32,000 bases of DNA from Candidatus Thorarchaeota archaeon (lineage in GTDB: Archaea > Asgardarchaeota > Heimdallarchaeia > Hodarchaeales > Hodarchaeaceae): the NCBI GenBank assembly GCA_048882505.1, contig JBHLRO010000026.1, positions 1 through 32,000 of the forward strand. The letters run 5' to 3'. Below, piece after piece: positions 3,596-21,715 of the stretch; the first letter of the stretch is position 1; each line of letters opens with the position of its first letter. A program made the translations under genes and the position numbers. The notes beneath the pieces were generated by a model. That model was not told where the DNA came from. It was given only the letters and a program-made list of their open reading frames with translations, and made no database searches.

Positions 3596-3621
3596 GAAAT
3601 AAAGACATGCGCCGGCCGGGA

Positions 3622-3671
3622 TTTTTGGAAAACAGCCGTCAAAAACCTCAGAGGTTCAACATCTGCTTTCT
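3622..3671 (-). other. tRNA intron 2 (50 nt, non-canonical position 59/60, T loop)
   Basis: Central helix UUCG/CAAA (one C-A mismatch), bulges AA^A and AA^U, 8-bp h' GAAAGCAG/CUGUUUUC. Removal restores the TTCGAAT loop. Confidence 0.88.
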
Positions 3672-3692
3672 TTCGAACCCGGGTTACCAGCT

Positions 3693-3712
3693 CACTCCAA
3701 CCAATGAGGTTA
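3693..3712 (-). other. tRNA intron 1 (20 nt, canonical position 37/38)
   Basis: TAACCTCATTGGTTGGAGTG forms a strict hBHBh': central helix CUCC/GGAG, bulges CA^U and UG^A, h' AACC/GGUU. Confidence 0.93.
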
Positions 3713-3967
3713 TGGGAGGCTGGTATCTTACCAGGCTGGATTACCGGCGCAAGAAACTATTCTTCAATCATTAAAGATCATTTTGGGTGCAAGAGATCAT
3801 TACGGGGTGGATTCCCTGCGCATTAGATCTATTTGCTTCCGCGTTATTTGTATTTTCTTTGTAATGCTGTTATTCTATCCTCCCCAAGGAAAAGAAACCG
3901 AGATTAGTGTTAATTGATCGTAAACAAAGATTTTTCGTTATACGATTTCAAAAACTGAATATGGAAT

Positions 3968-14632: not shown

Positions 14633-15949
14633 ATGATAATCGAGGGAAGAGAAAACCCGAATTCAGATCCAGGTAATATCTTATCCGCTTCCTTTCGGGC
14701 GCAAACATTTGTCCAAAATGGGCGTTATTACGACCAAAAGGGGCAATACTCACAAGCGGTGAAGTATTATGGATTGGCCCAAACCAAATTCGCTAATCTA
14801 TTGAAACAATTTCCAAAGGTACCTTTAACCCCCCAATGGGAGTTAGAAATTCGCCTGGCCCACCAACGTATCAACCAACTGAAATCTAAGGCGACACCCC
14901 AAAAACTCCGTTCAAAGGACGACCAACAATATGCCGAGATGAAAGCTCGCGTTCTCTCCTGTCGAGTCAAACCCAACCCGAACCTGACACGACAGGATGT
15001 GATCGGCCTCCATCATATCTGGCGGGAGCTCGAAGACGTCGTTATTGATCCATTGATTTACCCCGAACTCCTCCACACCAATCCGGACTTCCCCCGGACA
15101 ATTCTCCTCAACGGCCCCCCCGGCTGTGGGAAGAGCTTCCTGATGAATGTGTTGGCCGCGGTGGCCCCGATTACGCTCTTTCTGGTCACGCCAGGCCTGA
15201 TCTACCAGAAATGGATGGGAGAAAGCCAAAAAATGGTGCAGGTGTTGTATGAAACAGCCTGGGAGTACGCCCCCTCTGTCATCTTCATCGATGAGTTTGA
15301 CAAACTGTTTAATTCGTCAGTTACCCGTCTTAACGGCGGAACAGAGGCATCCCAGACAGGGATGCAGATCGAAAGCGAGCTCCAACAGTACTTGAGTGGG
15401 ATGCGGACACCTCTCGTCAACCCTACAGTTACAATAGCCGCCACCAACGAACCGTGGCAAATGGATGCCGCCATGCGACGACGCTTTGCTCGCATCCTCT
15501 ATATCGGCCCTCCCGGCTCGTTTACGATCGAACAGCTCATTGTCCGAAACTTTCGCCATACCCAACATGATCTAACCGAAAACCACGTCCAGTGGCTCGC
15601 GAATGAATTAGAGCGGCATTCACCCGCAGAGATTGCAAAAATTTGTTCGATCGCACATATGACGGCCCACAAACAAGCGCGAGACCAGGGATTTACTGAG
15701 GTGGTGAGTCTCAAGGATATGTTCGATGCCATCCCCACTGTGGCGCCTGCTCTGGAGCTCTGGGCTGAACATAGTACAAGGTATAAATCGAAACTCACTA
15801 AATATCGGGAGTGGAACGACCAGTATAGCATTCCTAAGATAGAACACCTGGGTTGGGAGTGGGAGCTGAAACCACGGGAGAAAACACGCAACCCAATTCA
15901 ACTGAAAGTCTTTGACGAATCCCAACCCGTAAAATGGAAGAAGGATTAA
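14633..15949 (+). CDS. Vps4/CdvC-like AAA+ ATPase with an N-terminal MIT domain
   Basis: MIT-like three-helix N-terminus (YDQKGQYSQAVKYY...RINQLK), Walker A GPPGCGKS, pore loop KWMGESQK, Walker B IFIDEFD, ATNEPWQMD, Arg fingers MRRRF, and a Vps4_C-like terminal helix. Confidence 0.85.
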   Translation: MIIEGRENPNSDPGNILSASFRAQTFVQNGRYYDQKGQYSQAVKYYGLAQTKFANLLKQFPKVPLTPQWELEIRLAHQRINQLKSKATPQKLRSKDDQQYAEMKARVLSCRVKPNPNLTRQDVIGLHHIWRELEDVVIDPLIYPELLHTNPDFPRTILLNGPPGCGKSFLMNVLAAVAPITLFLVTPGLIYQKWMGESQKMVQVLYETAWEYAPSVIFIDEFDKLFNSSVTRLNGGTEASQTGMQIESELQQYLSGMRTPLVNPTVTIAATNEPWQMDAAMRRRFARILYIGPPGSFTIEQLIVRNFRHTQHDLTENHVQWLANELERHSPAEIAKICSIAHMTAHKQARDQGFTEVVSLKDMFDAIPTVAPALELWAEHSTRYKSKLTKYREWNDQYSIPKIEHLGWEWELKPREKTRNPIQLKVFDESQPVKWKKD

Positions 15950-18900
15950 TGGAGCAGGAGGAGGCGCCTCAGGCCCAAGAAGAAGAGGAGCAGATTACCG
16001 AGGCTGTGGAGGAACAAGAAGAAAGCTGTGATCTAGACGGTCAAGACATCGAGGATCTCATTCAACAGATGGAAGCAGAACCCGAGGATCCCGACCCAGA
16101 AACAGAGGAAGACGTAGATCAAGAGGATACTCTAGATGATGTAGGCGACCATTTTCAGCAGATCGTTGAGGATGATATTGCTAGTGACACGCTGTCCAAG
16201 GATGAGATTCTCGAGGATCTCCCCTTTGAATTTCCGCTCGCGTTTGATTATGAACCTGAGAATGAGACCATTGAATTCCTGGAAAGTGAAACATCCTCGA
16301 TTCAAGAGGCCGAGCTGAATCGGGCCGAGGCCGTAGCGGAAGAGGAACATCTCGAAAAACTCCACCAATGGTTTGACCAACTTGTCCACCACGGCACTTC
16401 GGACTTAGAAGACCACGAAGATGTATATGAGCGAGATGAGGTGGGAGCGAGTACGTTGGAAGAAATCCAGGGTGTCATTGGGGAGGGGGAGATCCAGATC
16501 CAAGACTTAGCTGAACGGCTCCCTGAGGATATTTTCAGTTTCGAAATGGAGGAAGAACAGATAGATGCTCTCTTTCTGGAGGAACAGGACGTTAGTAGGT
16601 GGATTGAGGAAGAAACAACCCATGTAGCGGACCATCTTACCTTGGAAACACAAACTGAAGAACACCACCCTGAGCTTTCTGAGGAGGAGATAAAGTCAAA
16701 GCTGGAAGAGGTCGCTGAAGAGGTGAAAGATCAGTACGTCCAGGACCTCGATAGCTGGTGTGCGGATCTCCTGCACGAGACACCCGAAGAGAGTCGGGAG
16801 ATTGAGGTTCAAGAACAGGAATGGATAGAAACAACCCCTGATGAGGGAGAACTGGAAGTACTTACCCAAGAAGAGTTAGCTGTAAATGGGAGTGCGAACG
16901 AAGTAGAAATGGATAGTTTTACCCTCGTAGAAGAGGCAGAAGAGGATACACAATCAACAGTTACGACCCCTGAGGGGGGGACGAAGAATAATGAAATGGG
17001 AACGGTAGTTAAGGACATTGAGGAAGAAGAGTTAAGGGGGAATGTGACAGAGAAGGGAGTGGAGAATGCATCAATCACGGAAAATACACAATCCGAACAA
17101 GGACAGAATGTGAATATTGGGGAGGGGATACAAGCAGCTGAGAGTCATCCCATCCAGGAACTCGACAGCTGGTTGGATGAGGTTACCCATCTACTTTCTG
17201 ACGGGAAAGCCTTGGACTTTCTAGAGCAGGATAGTTTCGTGAACATAGATGATCTGGTTCCACTTAGGGAAAATACAACTGATAAGGAGCTAGAAACTCT
17301 AGAATTAAAGAATCAACTACCTATGTCTATTCCTGAGGATATTCTTCCATTAGATGACCTACAAGTGGACTCAGAATTCCTCACTTCCACGCTTTTTCAC
17401 ACTGGATCTACAGGCCTGGATTCAGAGTATAACGAAGAGATCGCTCCATTCGCCCCATTATCCGAGATAGCTACAGAAATCCAGCAAAGGGAACAGTACC
17501 TTGATGTAATAATGGGGCCCCACTTCCTCGAAGAGGTACACACCCAGATCGAAGTACAAACACTTGAACAACTCGAGACCAAGGCCGACCAGGTTCTAAA
17601 AACCCAGGAAGAAGGCCTCCAACTCCAACGTCAGGTGCCGACTCTTCCTGAACCCCCTCCCTACGATTTTCAGGCCGAATTGGAGGCCTGGGAAGAAGAG
17701 GAAGCCCTTCAAGCCAAGTACACCGGCCCCCCTATCTATCGGTTCGCTAGCCATACTCAGGAAGGACGTTCAAAAAACTTAAAGGCCTCGTCCGACACTT
17801 CCCAAATACAGAAAACCCAGGAAAAACAATCTAACAGAGAACCGAGGTCTAATTCTGGCAGGTCACTAGAGGAAGCTAAATACATTAAATTGACAGCATC
17901 TCGTGATTTGGCAACTCAATCCCTTTTTAATAAAGAGAAATCAATAGACAGCAAATATATGGTAGGATTGCCAAAAAGCGGAACTCAAGTGGAAAGAGGA
18001 AATGACCAGATGGGGACTTGTCAAACTTTTGAAAGGGATTTTAAGTATATCAAAGAATATTTCGGATCTCTCAAATCTCCTTTAGAAGGCTTTAAGTATT
18101 GGATTAGGTTTGAACAAGATCTTAAAATAGGTTCGATGAAGCAACCGTATTATTACAGTCTGTTAATCAAGCCCGATAAGAACATTCCCGATGTGGTTCA
18201 TGAAAAACGGATCTATATCCAAAACCGGTCATCCTTTTTTAAAAACGGCTGGGATGCAAGAAATTTTTACCAGCATTCGACCCGAAATGAAGCAGTCTCT
18301 TCCTTCCAGAAGATTGTTATGGAAAGAATTGACAAATGGCTAAATATATCTCCGTGGACAGCTGTAAAAATCCGTCATTCGATATACGAACAATTTTACG
18401 AAAAAAAGCCCGCATTTTCGGAAATAAGGAAGAAAATTACAACAACAAAGAGTAAAAAGAAACCTTCTCTTTTTATCGCTAAGTTTAATTTAGAAAATTC
18501 CCAACCCTTATGGATAAAAGCATTTAACGAATATATGAATAAGTTAAAAAATAAAGAGTCATTTCTGCAAGATTTAAAAATACGTTATCCTGACGTGTAT
18601 CAATATTATACCTCAGAAGAGAACACCCGCAATTTATCCCAAATTTTGGCCAATAAATCCCGATTCCTTGATTCTGAGGAAAAAAAACTGGCTAAACAAA
18701 TCGTTTTAGATGTGAATACGAGAAAGGAGGATACAGCAAAGGCCAAGCGGTTTATTGAAGAAATAAACCATGCAATAGTAGAGGGTAACCTAAATGTCTC
18801 AGACCAAAAGATACTTGAAAATTTAAGTATGATAAGGAAACTAGAATCGTTTAAAGATATTGGATTTGTGTACAACGGAAATAACTGGGTTACAGTCTAT

Positions 18901-20436
18901 AACTGGGAAGGGATGGATGATATCAAGTACTTCTTCAACGAAAGAATACAAGGAATTTGGGGATTGAAAATTTGGATTGACGTTTATATGGGAATCCCGA
19001 TTTTTTCGAATAATAACAAACCTCTTTATTACACTGTGACGTTAAATGATCAAAGTGATATTCTTTTTCCGTTACGAGGAAAAACATTTCTATTAAGAAA
19101 TGATCCAAGAGTTCTCAAAGAATATGGCGTTCGTAACTCATATTGGAGTGATAAGAACGGAACGGTCTTAAATTGGGAATATAGATTTTGTGAAGTTCTA
19201 GATTACGAAGTTCTAGGGCTAAACAAGGGAGATAAATCTGACCGAATGAACTTTACACGAATTAGAAATAGCATATTTAACCAGTTTAAACTAAAATACG
19301 GAGAAAATTACGGATACAAGACAAAAAATGCTCAAAGTCTCGCCCAGACAAAAATCCTTATTCTTAAATATGATAAAAATAACCTGCATTATTCTTGGAT
19401 AAGGGCATTTTCTACTTCTAAATGGGATATAACAACCTCTACATATAAGACTGTTGCTAATTGTCTTAGTAAGTTTGGATACGCAGATAGTCTAAAAGGG
19501 GAACCAATCGACTATATAATTACGACAAGCGAGATTAAATACGATAATTTGATTGCTAAGATACGTAATAAAGAGATTGACGATCTTGGGGAAATGATTC
19601 ATGCTCTAGAATATAATAAAAACTCATCGACTAAATTTCACGATTTGTATTTTGGAACCAAAGATGTACAATTTCCTCTTATGGCCGATACCAGGGACTT
19701 TCAGAAATTTAAAGATGAATCAAATCCACAGGGCGAGTCGGCAATAATCAGTTCATTATTCCAACATAGGGAGTTGATAAGAGAGATAAACAAAAGATTT
19801 CCGTCAACGATCCCTTCATATGGCATCTATGAATTTAAAGGCCAGTCTCGAGGTGAGAGTTCAACAACACCAGTCTATGAGGATATTTCAGCCAAAAAAA
19901 ATAAAGCAGGGGATCCATTATCGTCAAATGTGAACATTCTAATTAAGAATTCAAATGAACATGTAAAAATCCGATTGTTAGAAGACTATTTAAAAGCCTT
20001 GCACGGAGTTGGAGACAAAAATATCTATGTAAAAACAGTAATAACACATCCTGGGCATTTCAAGGATTTAAGCGAAATTCCAAGAGAAGTTAAGAAAGCA
20101 GTTGATAATTACCAGGAGGGAAGAAGACTTGGATGGATTGATATAGGGATTGTACGTGGTAATAAGACCTATAATAACCTTGGATCTATATATGGAGCTG
20201 TGAAATGGGCCCGTACTGAAACAACTAATCATAAGGTGGCCGACACCAAATCGGGCATCGTACATGATTCAATAAGAAAACTTATGGAACATCGTATTGT
20301 GAAAAAGGAAAAAGAATTAGTTGAAAATATGAACGACCTTTTTGAAAGACATAAATTTACTGGAAACTCCATTCGAGAAACCTCCTATGAAAAATTCAAG
20401 GATTTCATCATAGATTTCTTTGAAACGTTTTTTTAA
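15949..20436 (+). CDS. ~1500-aa bipartite protein: hyperacidic low-complexity N-terminal part, MIM2-like motif, two tandem ~164-aa repeats, possible nuclease-like C-terminus (ORF track start 15934)
   Basis: ATG 15949 overlaps the AAA stop (TAATG). 14 of the first 30 residues are D/E and none are K/R. The C-terminal part is K/N/I/Y-rich and AT-rich. Confidence 0.8.
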   Translation: MEQEEAPQAQEEEEQITEAVEEQEESCDLDGQDIEDLIQQMEAEPEDPDPETEEDVDQEDTLDDVGDHFQQIVEDDIASDTLSKDEILEDLPFEFPLAFDYEPENETIEFLESETSSIQEAELNRAEAVAEEEHLEKLHQWFDQLVHHGTSDLEDHEDVYERDEVGASTLEEIQGVIGEGEIQIQDLAERLPEDIFSFEMEEEQIDALFLEEQDVSRWIEEETTHVADHLTLETQTEEHHPELSEEEIKSKLEEVAEEVKDQYVQDLDSWCADLLHETPEESREIEVQEQEWIETTPDEGELEVLTQEELAVNGSANEVEMDSFTLVEEAEEDTQSTVTTPEGGTKNNEMGTVVKDIEEEELRGNVTEKGVENASITENTQSEQGQNVNIGEGIQAAESHPIQELDSWLDEVTHLLSDGKALDFLEQDSFVNIDDLVPLRENTTDKELETLELKNQLPMSIPEDILPLDDLQVDSEFLTSTLFHTGSTGLDSEYNEEIAPFAPLSEIATEIQQREQYLDVIMGPHFLEEVHTQIEVQTLEQLETKADQVLKTQEEGLQLQRQVPTLPEPPPYDFQAELEAWEEEEALQAKYTGPPIYRFASHTQEGRSKNLKASSDTSQIQKTQEKQSNREPRSNSGRSLEEAKYIKLTASRDLATQSLFNKEKSIDSKYMVGLPKSGTQVERGNDQMGTCQTFERDFKYIKEYFGSLKSPLEGFKYWIRFEQDLKIGSMKQPYYYSLLIKPDKNIPDVVHEKRIYIQNRSSFFKNGWDARNFYQHSTRNEAVSSFQKIVMERIDKWLNISPWTAVKIRHSIYEQFYEKKPAFSEIRKKITTTKSKKKPSLFIAKFNLENSQPLWIKAFNEYMNKLKNKESFLQDLKIRYPDVYQYYTSEENTRNLSQILANKSRFLDSEEKKLAKQIVLDVNTRKEDTAKAKRFIEEINHAIVEGNLNVSDQKILENLSMIRKLESFKDIGFVYNGNNWVTVYNWEGMDDIKYFFNERIQGIWGLKIWIDVYMGIPIFSNNNKPLYYTVTLNDQSDILFPLRGKTFLLRNDPRVLKEYGVRNSYWSDKNGTVLNWEYRFCEVLDYEVLGLNKGDKSDRMNFTRIRNSIFNQFKLKYGENYGYKTKNAQSLAQTKILILKYDKNNLHYSWIRAFSTSKWDITTSTYKTVANCLSKFGYADSLKGEPIDYIITTSEIKYDNLIAKIRNKEIDDLGEMIHALEYNKNSSTKFHDLYFGTKDVQFPLMADTRDFQKFKDESNPQGESAIISSLFQHRELIREINKRFPSTIPSYGIYEFKGQSRGESSTTPVYEDISAKKNKAGDPLSSNVNILIKNSNEHVKIRLLEDYLKALHGVGDKNIYVKTVITHPGHFKDLSEIPREVKKAVDNYQEGRRLGWIDIGIVRGNKTYNNLGSIYGAVKWARTETTNHKVADTKSGIVHDSIRKLMEHRIVKKEKELVENMNDLFERHKFTGNSIRETSYEKFKDFIIDFFETFF

Positions 20437-20637: not shown

Positions 20638-21715
20638 ATGAGTAAAACAGAAGGTAAAGATTTCACCGCAGACGATATTTCCTTCGATATGTTGTCCGAA
20701 GCTGACGTCGCAAGGGCCTATCAACAAATAATGGCTGAAATTCGGAAGGGATATATTGGACGCACCGAAATATTTGAGATGTTATGGATCGCCATGTTGA
20801 CCGGTAAACACGTCTATTTAGAGGGTGTACCGGGTATTGGAAAACTTGGTTGTGGTTACAACTAAGTCTGAAAAAACATATATGGCGAAAATCTTCTCTC
20901 AATGTTTAGGAACACAATTTCAACGAATTCAATTCACCCCCGACATGCTGCCCTCCGATATTGTTGGAACGAACATATTTAATCCCAAAACAGGAACGTT
21001 TCGTCTTAAAAAGGGTCCAATCTTTGCTAATGTCATATTGGCGGATGAAATTAATAGAGCTCCTCCTAAAACTCAATCAGCAATGTTGGAGGCCATGGCT
21101 GAAAGCCAAGTCTCTATAGAAGGCGAAACACATAAGCTGGAACAACCTTTTGTCGTTATGGCGACTGCAAATCCCGTAGAGCAAGAAGGAACGTATCCCC
21201 TGCCAGAAGCTCAGTTGGATAGGTTCATGCTCAAAGTTATTATCCATCATTCATCGCCTGACGATGAACTTCGAATTATCAATTTCAAAAATGAGCCTGT
21301 CCCGGCCAAAATCAACCAAGTGGTGTCTCCTCAGACTATAGTTGCTATGATGGATGTTGTTAAACGTATTTATGTCTGTCCGGAAATTCTCGAAATGATT
21401 AGGGACATTACAGTTGCTACGCGCACAGATCCAAGACTAATACTCGGTTGTTCTCCCCGTGGAAGCGAAAGTCTACTGCTAGCTGGTAAAGCAAGGGCAG
21501 CCATACATGGCCGGGATTATGTGATACCAGACGATATTCTTCTAATGATACCTCATATAGTACATCATCGATTAATCATGAAGCCGGAAGCAGAACTCGA
21601 AGGTATCTCTCAGATAAGGGTGTCCGAGGATATACGCGATAGTCTCGTTGTGCCTGTCCATCTCGTAACCGAAGAAATGATCGTAGAAGAGTACATTGAA
21701 GAATATGTCGAATAG
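20638..21715 (+). CDS. moxR: MoxR-family AAA+ ATPase, interrupted by a 31-nt insert; 348 aa once the insert is removed
   Basis: Exon 1 ends LEGVPGIG(K). Exon 2 continues TYMAK...RIQFTPDMLPSDIVG, LADEINRAPPKTQSAMLEAM, ATANPVEQEGTYPLPEAQLDRF and SPRG. 1078-31=1047 nt = 349 codons. Confidence 0.93.
20843..20873 (+). other. Candidate BHB-type intron in a protein-coding gene (31 nt)
   Basis: AACTTGGTTGTGGTTACAACTAAGTCTGAAA. 10-bp h' hairpin closing GGUU, 4-bp central helix UUGG/CUGA, 3-nt bulges AA^A and AA^A. Contains an in-frame TAA at 20863-20865. Confidence 0.75.

Follow-up and report, generated by a model that had tools for sequence, protein, structure and literature searches.

The DNA analysed here (the window) is a stretch of 32,000 nucleotides, positions 1 to 32,000 of contig JBHLRO010000026.1 in assembly GCA_048882505.1, and it carries a moxR gene for a MoxR AAA+ ATPase whose reading frame is broken by a short insert. 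The gene (20638-21715, + strand) is interrupted within the Walker A lysine codon by 31 nt (20843-20873), and comparison with related sequences indicates that this insert is very probably a bulge-helix-bulge (BHB)-type, or tRNA-type, intron of the moxR pre-mRNA. An earlier note, made from the letters of the window, had already proposed such an intron in a probable Asgard archaeon. The host is indeed an Asgard archaeon, as near-identical proteins are named Candidatus Hodarchaeales or Hodarchaeum by NCBI.

The upstream open reading frame (ORF) spans 20638-20865 and ends at a TAA stop codon (20863-20865) after 75 aa, with the tail ...GVPGIGKLGCGYN. A second frame is open from 20825 to 21715 and bears the Pfam domains AAA_3 and AAA_lid_2. 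Excision of any 31 nt starting at 20841-20845 fuses the two into a single 348-aa ORF (...GVPGIGKTYMAKIF...), and the joined product has an exact Walker A motif, GVPGIGKTYMAK or GVPGIGKTYMA. No further lesion was found in exon 2. The parts of the gene are as follows:

20638..20842, + strand: moxR exon 1, N-terminal bpMoxR-like region (ORF, Pfam PF20030) up to GVPGIG and the first base of the Lys codon
20843..20873, + strand: candidate BHB-type intron, 31 nt; removal restores GVPGIGKTYMA, and homologous inserts occur in L034/L043 and L035/L036
20874..21715, + strand: moxR exon 2, Walker A Lys-Thr, AAA_3 (PF07726, 3.7e-58), AAA_lid_2 (PF17863) and the stop codon

On recheck, the coordinates and frames given in the earlier note (75-aa ORF, TAA stop, stem, bulges and helix) were all correct, and the excision test bore out its claim that 31 nt restore both the frame and GVPGIGKT. 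The insert is genuine DNA. A Logan contig at 35x from run X1, which may represent the source sample, spans the site ungapped, and a 1155-nt contig of run X2, from a separate study (2022), spans the insert with 2 substitutions and no gap. An assembly artefact, which the note had named as a way in which its proposal could fail, is thereby ruled out.

Homologous inserts were found at the same site in other carriers. A metagenome contig (L034) was identified with the degenerate pattern EGVPGIG, gap, TYMA. Further split genes were found by searching with the 75-aa N-terminal fragment, a query that can return only similarly truncated products. Three diverged alleles were obtained, each of them seen in two datasets:

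Allele A: the window, with runs X1 and X2; insert 31 nt; predicted spliced ORF 348 aa
Allele B: L034 (JGI) and L043 (ENA), identical over a 517-nt overlap; insert 31 nt; predicted spliced ORF 345 aa
Allele C: L035 (NCBI metagenome-assembled genome, MAG) and L036 (Logan); insert 30 nt with an in-frame TGA; predicted spliced ORF 352 aa

In all three alleles, the BHB cut rule restores GVPGIGKTYMA and a complete ORF, and no other stop codon or frameshift is present. In allele B, GKT arises only from excisions that start at 20841-20843, and the predicted start is among them. The comparison of orthologues suggested in the earlier note thus revealed inserts of 31, 31 and 30 nt in three diverged alleles. 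On the other hand, the insert was absent from 30 of 30 orthologues from species-representative relatives. These include 21 species of the same genus and the closest relative (G016), which is intronless and has a MoxR protein that is 97% identical. A strict-pattern scan of the species-representative genomes gave no match. A loosened pattern gave 64 matches, nearly all of them bacterial, and the archaeal ones (L078, L091) proved to be uninterrupted genes. The truncated MoxR fragments L037, L038, L039, L040 and L041 were likewise rejected as carriers; they owe their truncation to deletions, a nonsense mutation or contig breaks and hold no introns.

The fold predicted around the insert comprises the following elements (a caret marks the predicted cut):

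20825..20836, + strand: candidate 5' strand of a weak exon-exon outer helix (h), partner at about 20879-20885; its register differs between the minimum free energy (MFE) fold and RNAalifold
20837..20840, + strand: 5' strand of the central helix H, UUGG (exon 1), pairing with 20868-20871; four pairs kept in three alleles
20841..20843, + strand: 5' bulge B1, AA^A, predicted cut after 20842; geometry as in the tRNA introns of the genome
20844..20867, + strand: intron hairpin h', a 10-bp stem with a GGUU loop, present in the MFE fold
20868..20871, + strand: 3' strand of H, CUGA (intron), from the allele comparison and RNAalifold
20872..20874, + strand: 3' bulge B2, AA^A, predicted cut after 20873; within a 7-nt unpaired stretch (20872-20878)

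The stem of h' (20844-20853 / 20858-20867) contains one G-U pair. In allele A, H would be formed by UUGG and CUGA with two G-U pairs, and in allele C the 3' strand is CCAA, giving four Watson-Crick pairs. A 4-bp helix with a 3-nt bulge 3' of each of its strands, the hallmark of a BHB, is therefore present, with the caveat that B2 opens into the 7-nt unpaired stretch. The cut position in B2 is the one required for an AAA or AAG Lys codon followed by an ACN Thr codon in all alleles. RNAalifold, run unaided, recovered the central helix, the 3-nt bulge and the stem one base off register and left columns 48-54, on the side of the 3' bulge, unpaired. The whole structure, including the exon-exon helix, is the MFE fold of allele C. 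For the outer helix there are two alternative registers of 3-5 bp, with unpaired bases between h and H. Since its positions are under coding constraint, covariation cannot test it. The motif is relaxed rather than canonical, owing to the weak exon-exon helix and to the position of the 3' bulge within a 7-nt A-rich unpaired stretch; the caveat to this effect in the earlier note holds.

The geometry agrees with introns that the host already carries. In a scan, the handedness of the bulges and the cut after bulge nucleotide 2 matched the genome's own canonical tRNA introns in Ala-GGC (31 nt, UUGG/CUAA), Gln-CUG (27 nt) and Thr-CGU (22 nt). The intron of tRNA-Met-CAU (26 nt), read by eye, has the same handedness and follows the same cut rule. 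The predicted cuts also agree with the rule established for the crenarchaeal cbf5 intron, which is cleaved between bulge residues 2 and 3 (PMC2738675). Relaxed BHB-like motifs alone are common, with hundreds per 32 kb. As such a motif is expected by chance, the weight of the argument comes from the comparative evidence.

This evidence comes from aligning the three alleles. Where both bases are present, each of the 14 pairs of H and h' is kept, and h' measures 9-10 bp in all alleles, allele C being without the loop-closing pair. Five pairs vary in sequence:

Pair 20838/20870: U-G in allele A, C-G in allele B, U-A in allele C
Pair 20845/20866: C-G in allele A, U-G in allele B, U-A in allele C
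Pair 20839/20869: G-U in allele A, G-U in allele B, G-C in allele C
Pair 20848/20863: G-U in allele A, A-U in allele B, A-U in allele C
Pair 20847/20864: U-A in allele A, U-A in allele B, U-G in allele C

The pairs are maintained through one-sided as well as two-sided changes. Compensatory changes, which the earlier note had suggested looking for in the stem, can thus be recognized: the five varying pairs stay paired, and two of them run through U-G, C-G and U-A. The loop is free to vary (GGUU, AGUC and ACCU in A, B and C). The third base of B1, the first base of the proposed intron, varies as A, U and A, as expected for an intron base. When the partners were slid by 1-3 columns, pairing fell from 98% for the whole structure to 25-39%; the cells of H and h' are 100% paired.

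Exons and insert both appear to be under constraint. Between alleles A and B, the exons differ by 149 synonymous and 35 non-synonymous changes, corresponding to a synonymous divergence (dS) of 1.5 and a ratio of non-synonymous to synonymous rates (dN/dS) of 0.03. A dN/dS of 0.03 was also obtained for allele C against its nearest intronless relative. Since the split from G016, the branch leading to the genome that holds the window (G000) has accumulated 43 synonymous and 6 non-synonymous changes, and the intronless G016 branch 51 and 9, respectively, so that the carrier branch looks no more relaxed than the intronless one. The exons are therefore under strong purifying selection, as judged from these substitution patterns. 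Alleles A and B have different bases at 5 of the 31 insert positions, and A and C at 9 positions, with one indel in addition. For synonymous sites of the exons, the difference is 0.65 (A-B) and 0.82 (A-C), so that the insert has changed about three to four times less than synonymous sites. This slower change indicates that the intron is itself constrained or that it is younger than the gene.

These numbers bear directly on whether the insert might be a pseudogenising insertion that is never removed, leaving the gene dead in its carriers. Its absence from the 30 orthologues, including the 97%-identical G016, would fit such an event, and moxR pseudogenes do exist in the genus (L039, L040 and L037). 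However, the three diverged carriers show no other lesion at a dN/dS of 0.03 over a dS of about 1.5, without the additional stops, frameshifts or relaxed selection expected of a dead gene. With 6 non-synonymous against 43 synonymous changes on the G000 branch, any neutral phase can account for at most a few percent of that branch. The insert is conserved beyond synonymous sites and with compensating changes, and the true pseudogenes look otherwise, with a nonsense codon, 28-nt deletions and multiple breaks. The earlier note had held that exons evolving like a pseudogene would refute its proposal; at a dN/dS of about 0.03 in the carriers, they do not. In addition, the gene downstream is intact, here and also downstream of allele C and of L037:

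21843..23321, + strand: intact DUF58/VWA gene (PF01882, PF13519), the usual operon partner of MoxR

Taken together, it seems very unlikely that the gene is dead in its carriers.

The damaged moxR genes of related archaea were inspected individually. L039:1134-1330 (JGI 3300033388, a Hodarchaeales MAG) is a true moxR pseudogene in which TAA replaces the lysine codon of Walker A. Near this TAA, V has changed to L and H to R, and the remaining gene is split into pieces of 78 aa and 164 aa. L040:1654-1760 and L037:690-760 carry one 28-nt deletion each, with loss of P-loop codons. In both lineages the deletion overlaps the site of the intron, with a displacement of 13 nt relative to the other; this could be coincidence or could reflect imprecise loss of an intron. 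Further downstream, L040 also carries a second deletion, which is in frame. In L038:1690-1842 (ENA ERZ27250394), moxR diverges fully after GGTGTGCCTG, and the contig ends 150 nt on. The point of divergence is the start of the L037 deletion; L038 may contain a larger insertion or be a chimeric contig.

A contiguous protein could also be produced without splicing if the ribosome hopped from AAA to AAA, in the manner of T4 gene 60, or shifted frame within the insert. Alleles A and C do offer AAA before the hairpin and AAA before ACN 30-31 nt further on, and the hairpin begins at the take-off site, as it does in gene 60. In allele B, by contrast, the hairpin is preceded by GGA AUA and the landing codon is AAG, so that there are no matched Lys codons. 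Under splicing, AUA and AAG are readily explained by the first intron base and a synonymous Lys codon. Neither the matched codons nor the stop codon after the take-off codon that characterize gene 60-type bypassing are found throughout; in none of the alleles is the take-off codon immediately followed by a stop. No single frameshift rule serves both the 31 nt of alleles A and B and the 30 nt with an in-frame UGA of allele C, and read-through would place 10 foreign residues in the P-loop. Bypassing is not known from archaea. Translational recoding is thus extremely improbable as an explanation of the insert.

Carriers of the insert are scattered over the gene tree. Maximum-likelihood analysis of the spliced genes places allele A with the intronless G016 and allele B as sister to this pair, each with a support of 100. 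Allele C lies in a separate clade beside the intronless L006. The intron states common to B and C are changed in A. This distribution requires either one old gain followed by several precise losses, a history that has been argued for cbf5, or transfer between lineages, so that we infer precise losses and/or lateral transfer. No donor was found: even when up to 3 mismatches were allowed, the hairpin sequence occurred only once in the genome and in none of 82 other genomes of the class. Nor was any likeness of the hairpin to tRNA introns convincing beyond what the UUGG pairing imposes.

A patchy occurrence would also be shown by a mobile DNA hairpin unrelated to splicing, with the two ORF pieces acting separately or the hairpin being excised from the DNA in some cells, and a GAAAA direct repeat does flank the insert. 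This repeat is, however, expected from the two-fold pseudo-symmetry of a BHB, and a mobile element is difficult to reconcile with a hairpin sequence that is unique across the genome and 83 genomes of the class. From allele to allele, the N-terminal fragments end in dissimilar tails (KLGCGYN, IFSCSHN and KFS). Moreover, separate pieces would split the P-loop between K and T, and a Walker A loop divided in this way cannot bind nucleotide. We consider the chance of a mobile hairpin to be almost negligible. In sum, an insert that is conserved with compensating changes in three diverged lineages, in genes that are otherwise intact, is very probably a spliced mRNA intron.

If the insert is spliced, the likely course can be outlined. 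The exon 1 sequence UUGG would pair with CUGA near the 3' end of the intron, leaving a 3-nt bulge and the 10-bp intron hairpin on one side and an A-rich bulge on the other. An EndA of the (alpha-beta)2 type would cleave between the second and third nucleotides of each bulge, at 20842/20843 and 20873/20874. RtcB would then ligate the exons, rebuilding the Walker A Lys codon (A + AA) and yielding the 348-aa MoxR ATPase. The predicted spliced junction is GGUAUUGGAAAAACAUAUAUGGC; it would read GGUAUUGGAA^AAACAUAUAUGGC in allele A and ...CAUCGGAA^AGACGUACAUGG in allele B. The 31-nt intron would be set free, probably as a circle.

The genome encodes the required enzymes. Two EndA paralogues are located on contig C18 (41065-41613 and 72020-72661), each with both endonuclease domains. 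The 182-aa, alpha-like EndA can be aligned over its full length to 3P1Z_B (1e-41), the catalytic subunit of the heterotetramer of A. pernix, and keeps the catalytic His. Where A. pernix has VEKPRG, it carries IRKPKS, which includes the equivalent of Lys44 in the Crenarchaea-specific loop (CSL). This loop with Lys44 confers broad substrate specificity (PMC3241643). The 213-aa EndA resembles structural or EndA-like subunits, and the pair is predicted to be of an (alpha-beta)2-like type. According to one study (PMC5829648), relaxed motifs are cut only by (alpha-beta)2 and epsilon2 enzymes. An intact RtcB is encoded on contig C2, so that the host possesses both an endonuclease predicted to cut relaxed motifs and the ligase. 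Small tRNA introns of similar geometry and size (16-31+ nt) are numerous in the genome, some of them with an imperfect central helix.

Rfam and ARAGORN reported nothing in the window, and introns called by ARAGORN in this genome cannot be trusted except at position 37/38. A tRNA gene at 3609-3752 (- strand) was missed by both programs. It has the acceptor arms GCGCCGG/CCGGCGC and a T-loop intron at 59/60 of about 50 nt, with bulges AA^A and AA^U and a central helix UUCG/CAAA containing one mismatch. The tRNA-Ala(GGC) gene on contig C2 (137847-137952, - strand) has a 31-nt intron with the exon strand UUGG, the central helix UUGG/CUAA and bulges CA^A and AU^U. Its anticodon-loop context, CUUGGCA, is similar to AUUGGAA at the moxR site; the intron bodies are not clearly alike. 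This resemblance possibly hints at how the moxR site became spliceable.

The genome was further screened for other genes of this kind, as the earlier note had suggested in proposing a scan for frameshifted genes with BHB-bounded inserts; no convincing second case emerged. In a whole-genome screen that combined the BHB with ORF repair, the true geometry with the exact cut did not exceed mirror-image motifs or cuts shifted by 1-2 nt at any threshold. moxR was the top match. The runner-up, on contig C19, lies within an uninterrupted 622-aa ORF and is a false positive. A tblastn screen based on paralogues returned about 30 frame-changing junctions, mostly of 1-2 nt and none with a convincing BHB; it missed moxR and hence has low power. 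A change of frame was also noted in an inositol-monophosphatase-like gene (ILSEE ... IDPLDGTTNY) on contig C17 (- strand; about 49231-49274, counted on the reverse strand). A 44-nt BHB-like excision would be possible there, but the protein spacing looks wrong and a plain frameshift is more likely. About 20 other junctions from the paralogue-based screen measure 1-2 nt.

Several observations weigh against the insert being a spliced intron. The support is comparative only, splicing being deduced from sequence. The absence of the insert from G016 and 29 other orthologues demands several precise losses or transfer. With regard to structure, the outer exon-exon helix is weak, the 3' bulge is effectively 7 nt, and the motif is relaxed instead of canonical. 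The central helix of allele A, with its two G-U pairs, lies outside the single-sequence MFE fold. A shuffle control of the pair count was not significant (235/500), a control that with three alleles only has no power. Finally, the genome-wide screen provided neither a second mRNA intron nor an excess over the controls.

The lack of an excess leaves a genome-wide layer of mRNA introns unsupported. It seems doubtful that tRNA-type introns are actively colonising mRNAs in Hodarchaeales, with a moxR intron that moves or is repeatedly and precisely lost and a P-loop that is conditional on EndA and RtcB. If this were the case, the splicing of moxR would be the archaeal parallel to that of the HAC1/XBP1 type and might have a role in regulation.

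A gene for a 1500-aa protein (15934-20436, + strand) immediately precedes moxR. The N-terminal half of this protein is very acidic, and no Pfam match was found. Allele B has the same upstream neighbour, at about 86% nucleotide identity across the whole aligned region. In L040, a DUF4350-like gene (a faint Pfam match) adjoins moxR in place of the gene for the 1500-aa protein. As this neighbour differs from that of alleles A and B, it seems that an insertion has brought a block into the operon in the clade of A and B.

The closest known parallel is the cbf5 pre-mRNA intron of Crenarchaeota (Desulfurococcales and Sulfolobales; Watanabe 2002, Yoshinari 2006, Yokobori 2009; PMC2738675). In the literature searched, archaeal pre-mRNA BHB splicing is documented for crenarchaeal cbf5 only, and a structural paper from 2025 cites just cbf5; the earlier note, which called it the classic example, in fact named the sole published case that we found. 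As proposed for moxR, the cbf5 intron is cut between bulge residues 2 and 3 by a hetero-oligomeric EndA and is patchily distributed, with gain and loss among related species (PMC2738675). Both introns lie in the codon of a catalytic residue, Asp in Cbf5 and the Walker A Lys in moxR. On the other hand, the introns are not homologous, the host gene encodes a MoxR AAA+ ATPase, and the host belongs to the Asgard Hodarchaeales instead of the Crenarchaeota. Splicing of cbf5 was shown by cDNA and in vitro cleavage, whereas the case for moxR is comparative. With a second gene unrelated to cbf5, the EndA/RtcB pathway would be seen to act on mRNAs more widely, and this in an Asgard lineage in which introns of this type already abound in tRNA genes; Hodarchaeales are the archaea placed closest to eukaryotes. 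With one site, three natural variants and a frame-dependent read-out, moxR offers a test case that could address the origin and precise loss of BHB introns and the gating of protein function by intron removal.

With the non-canonical BHB introns in tRNAs and rRNAs of intron-rich archaea, Asgard tRNA genes among them (Marck and Grosjean 2003; bioRxiv 10.64898/2026.10.13.758758), the moxR insert shares its geometry, size range, A-rich bulges and predicted enzymes. In both, half of the motif is contributed by the exon, and gains are recent and lineage-specific. Repeated gains of tRNA introns have been documented in Asgard archaea in a study that does not treat mRNAs (bioRxiv 10.64898/2026.10.13.758758). 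In moxR, by contrast, the host RNA is an mRNA, so that the part of the motif contributed by the exon has to code for protein as well. A strong exon-exon helix comparable to the anticodon stem is lacking, and an error in splicing would alter the reading frame and not the fold of a tRNA.

Two further systems resemble the moxR arrangement in part. T4 gene 60 likewise has a short non-coding gap with a hairpin within an ORF and gives a contiguous protein, but it needs matched take-off and landing codons, which allele B does not have. In the HAC1/XBP1 splicing of eukaryotes, a short mRNA intron with stem-loop sites is cleaved by IRE1 and the exons are ligated by RtcB or Trl1, which changes the reading frame. 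The removal proposed for moxR would be similar in that a short intron is taken out of an mRNA independently of the spliceosome and the exons are joined by a tRNA ligase. The HAC1/XBP1 pathway differs in its endonuclease, IRE1, in its recognition motif and in being regulated by stress, and the likeness to moxR is one of mechanism, with no homology claimed.
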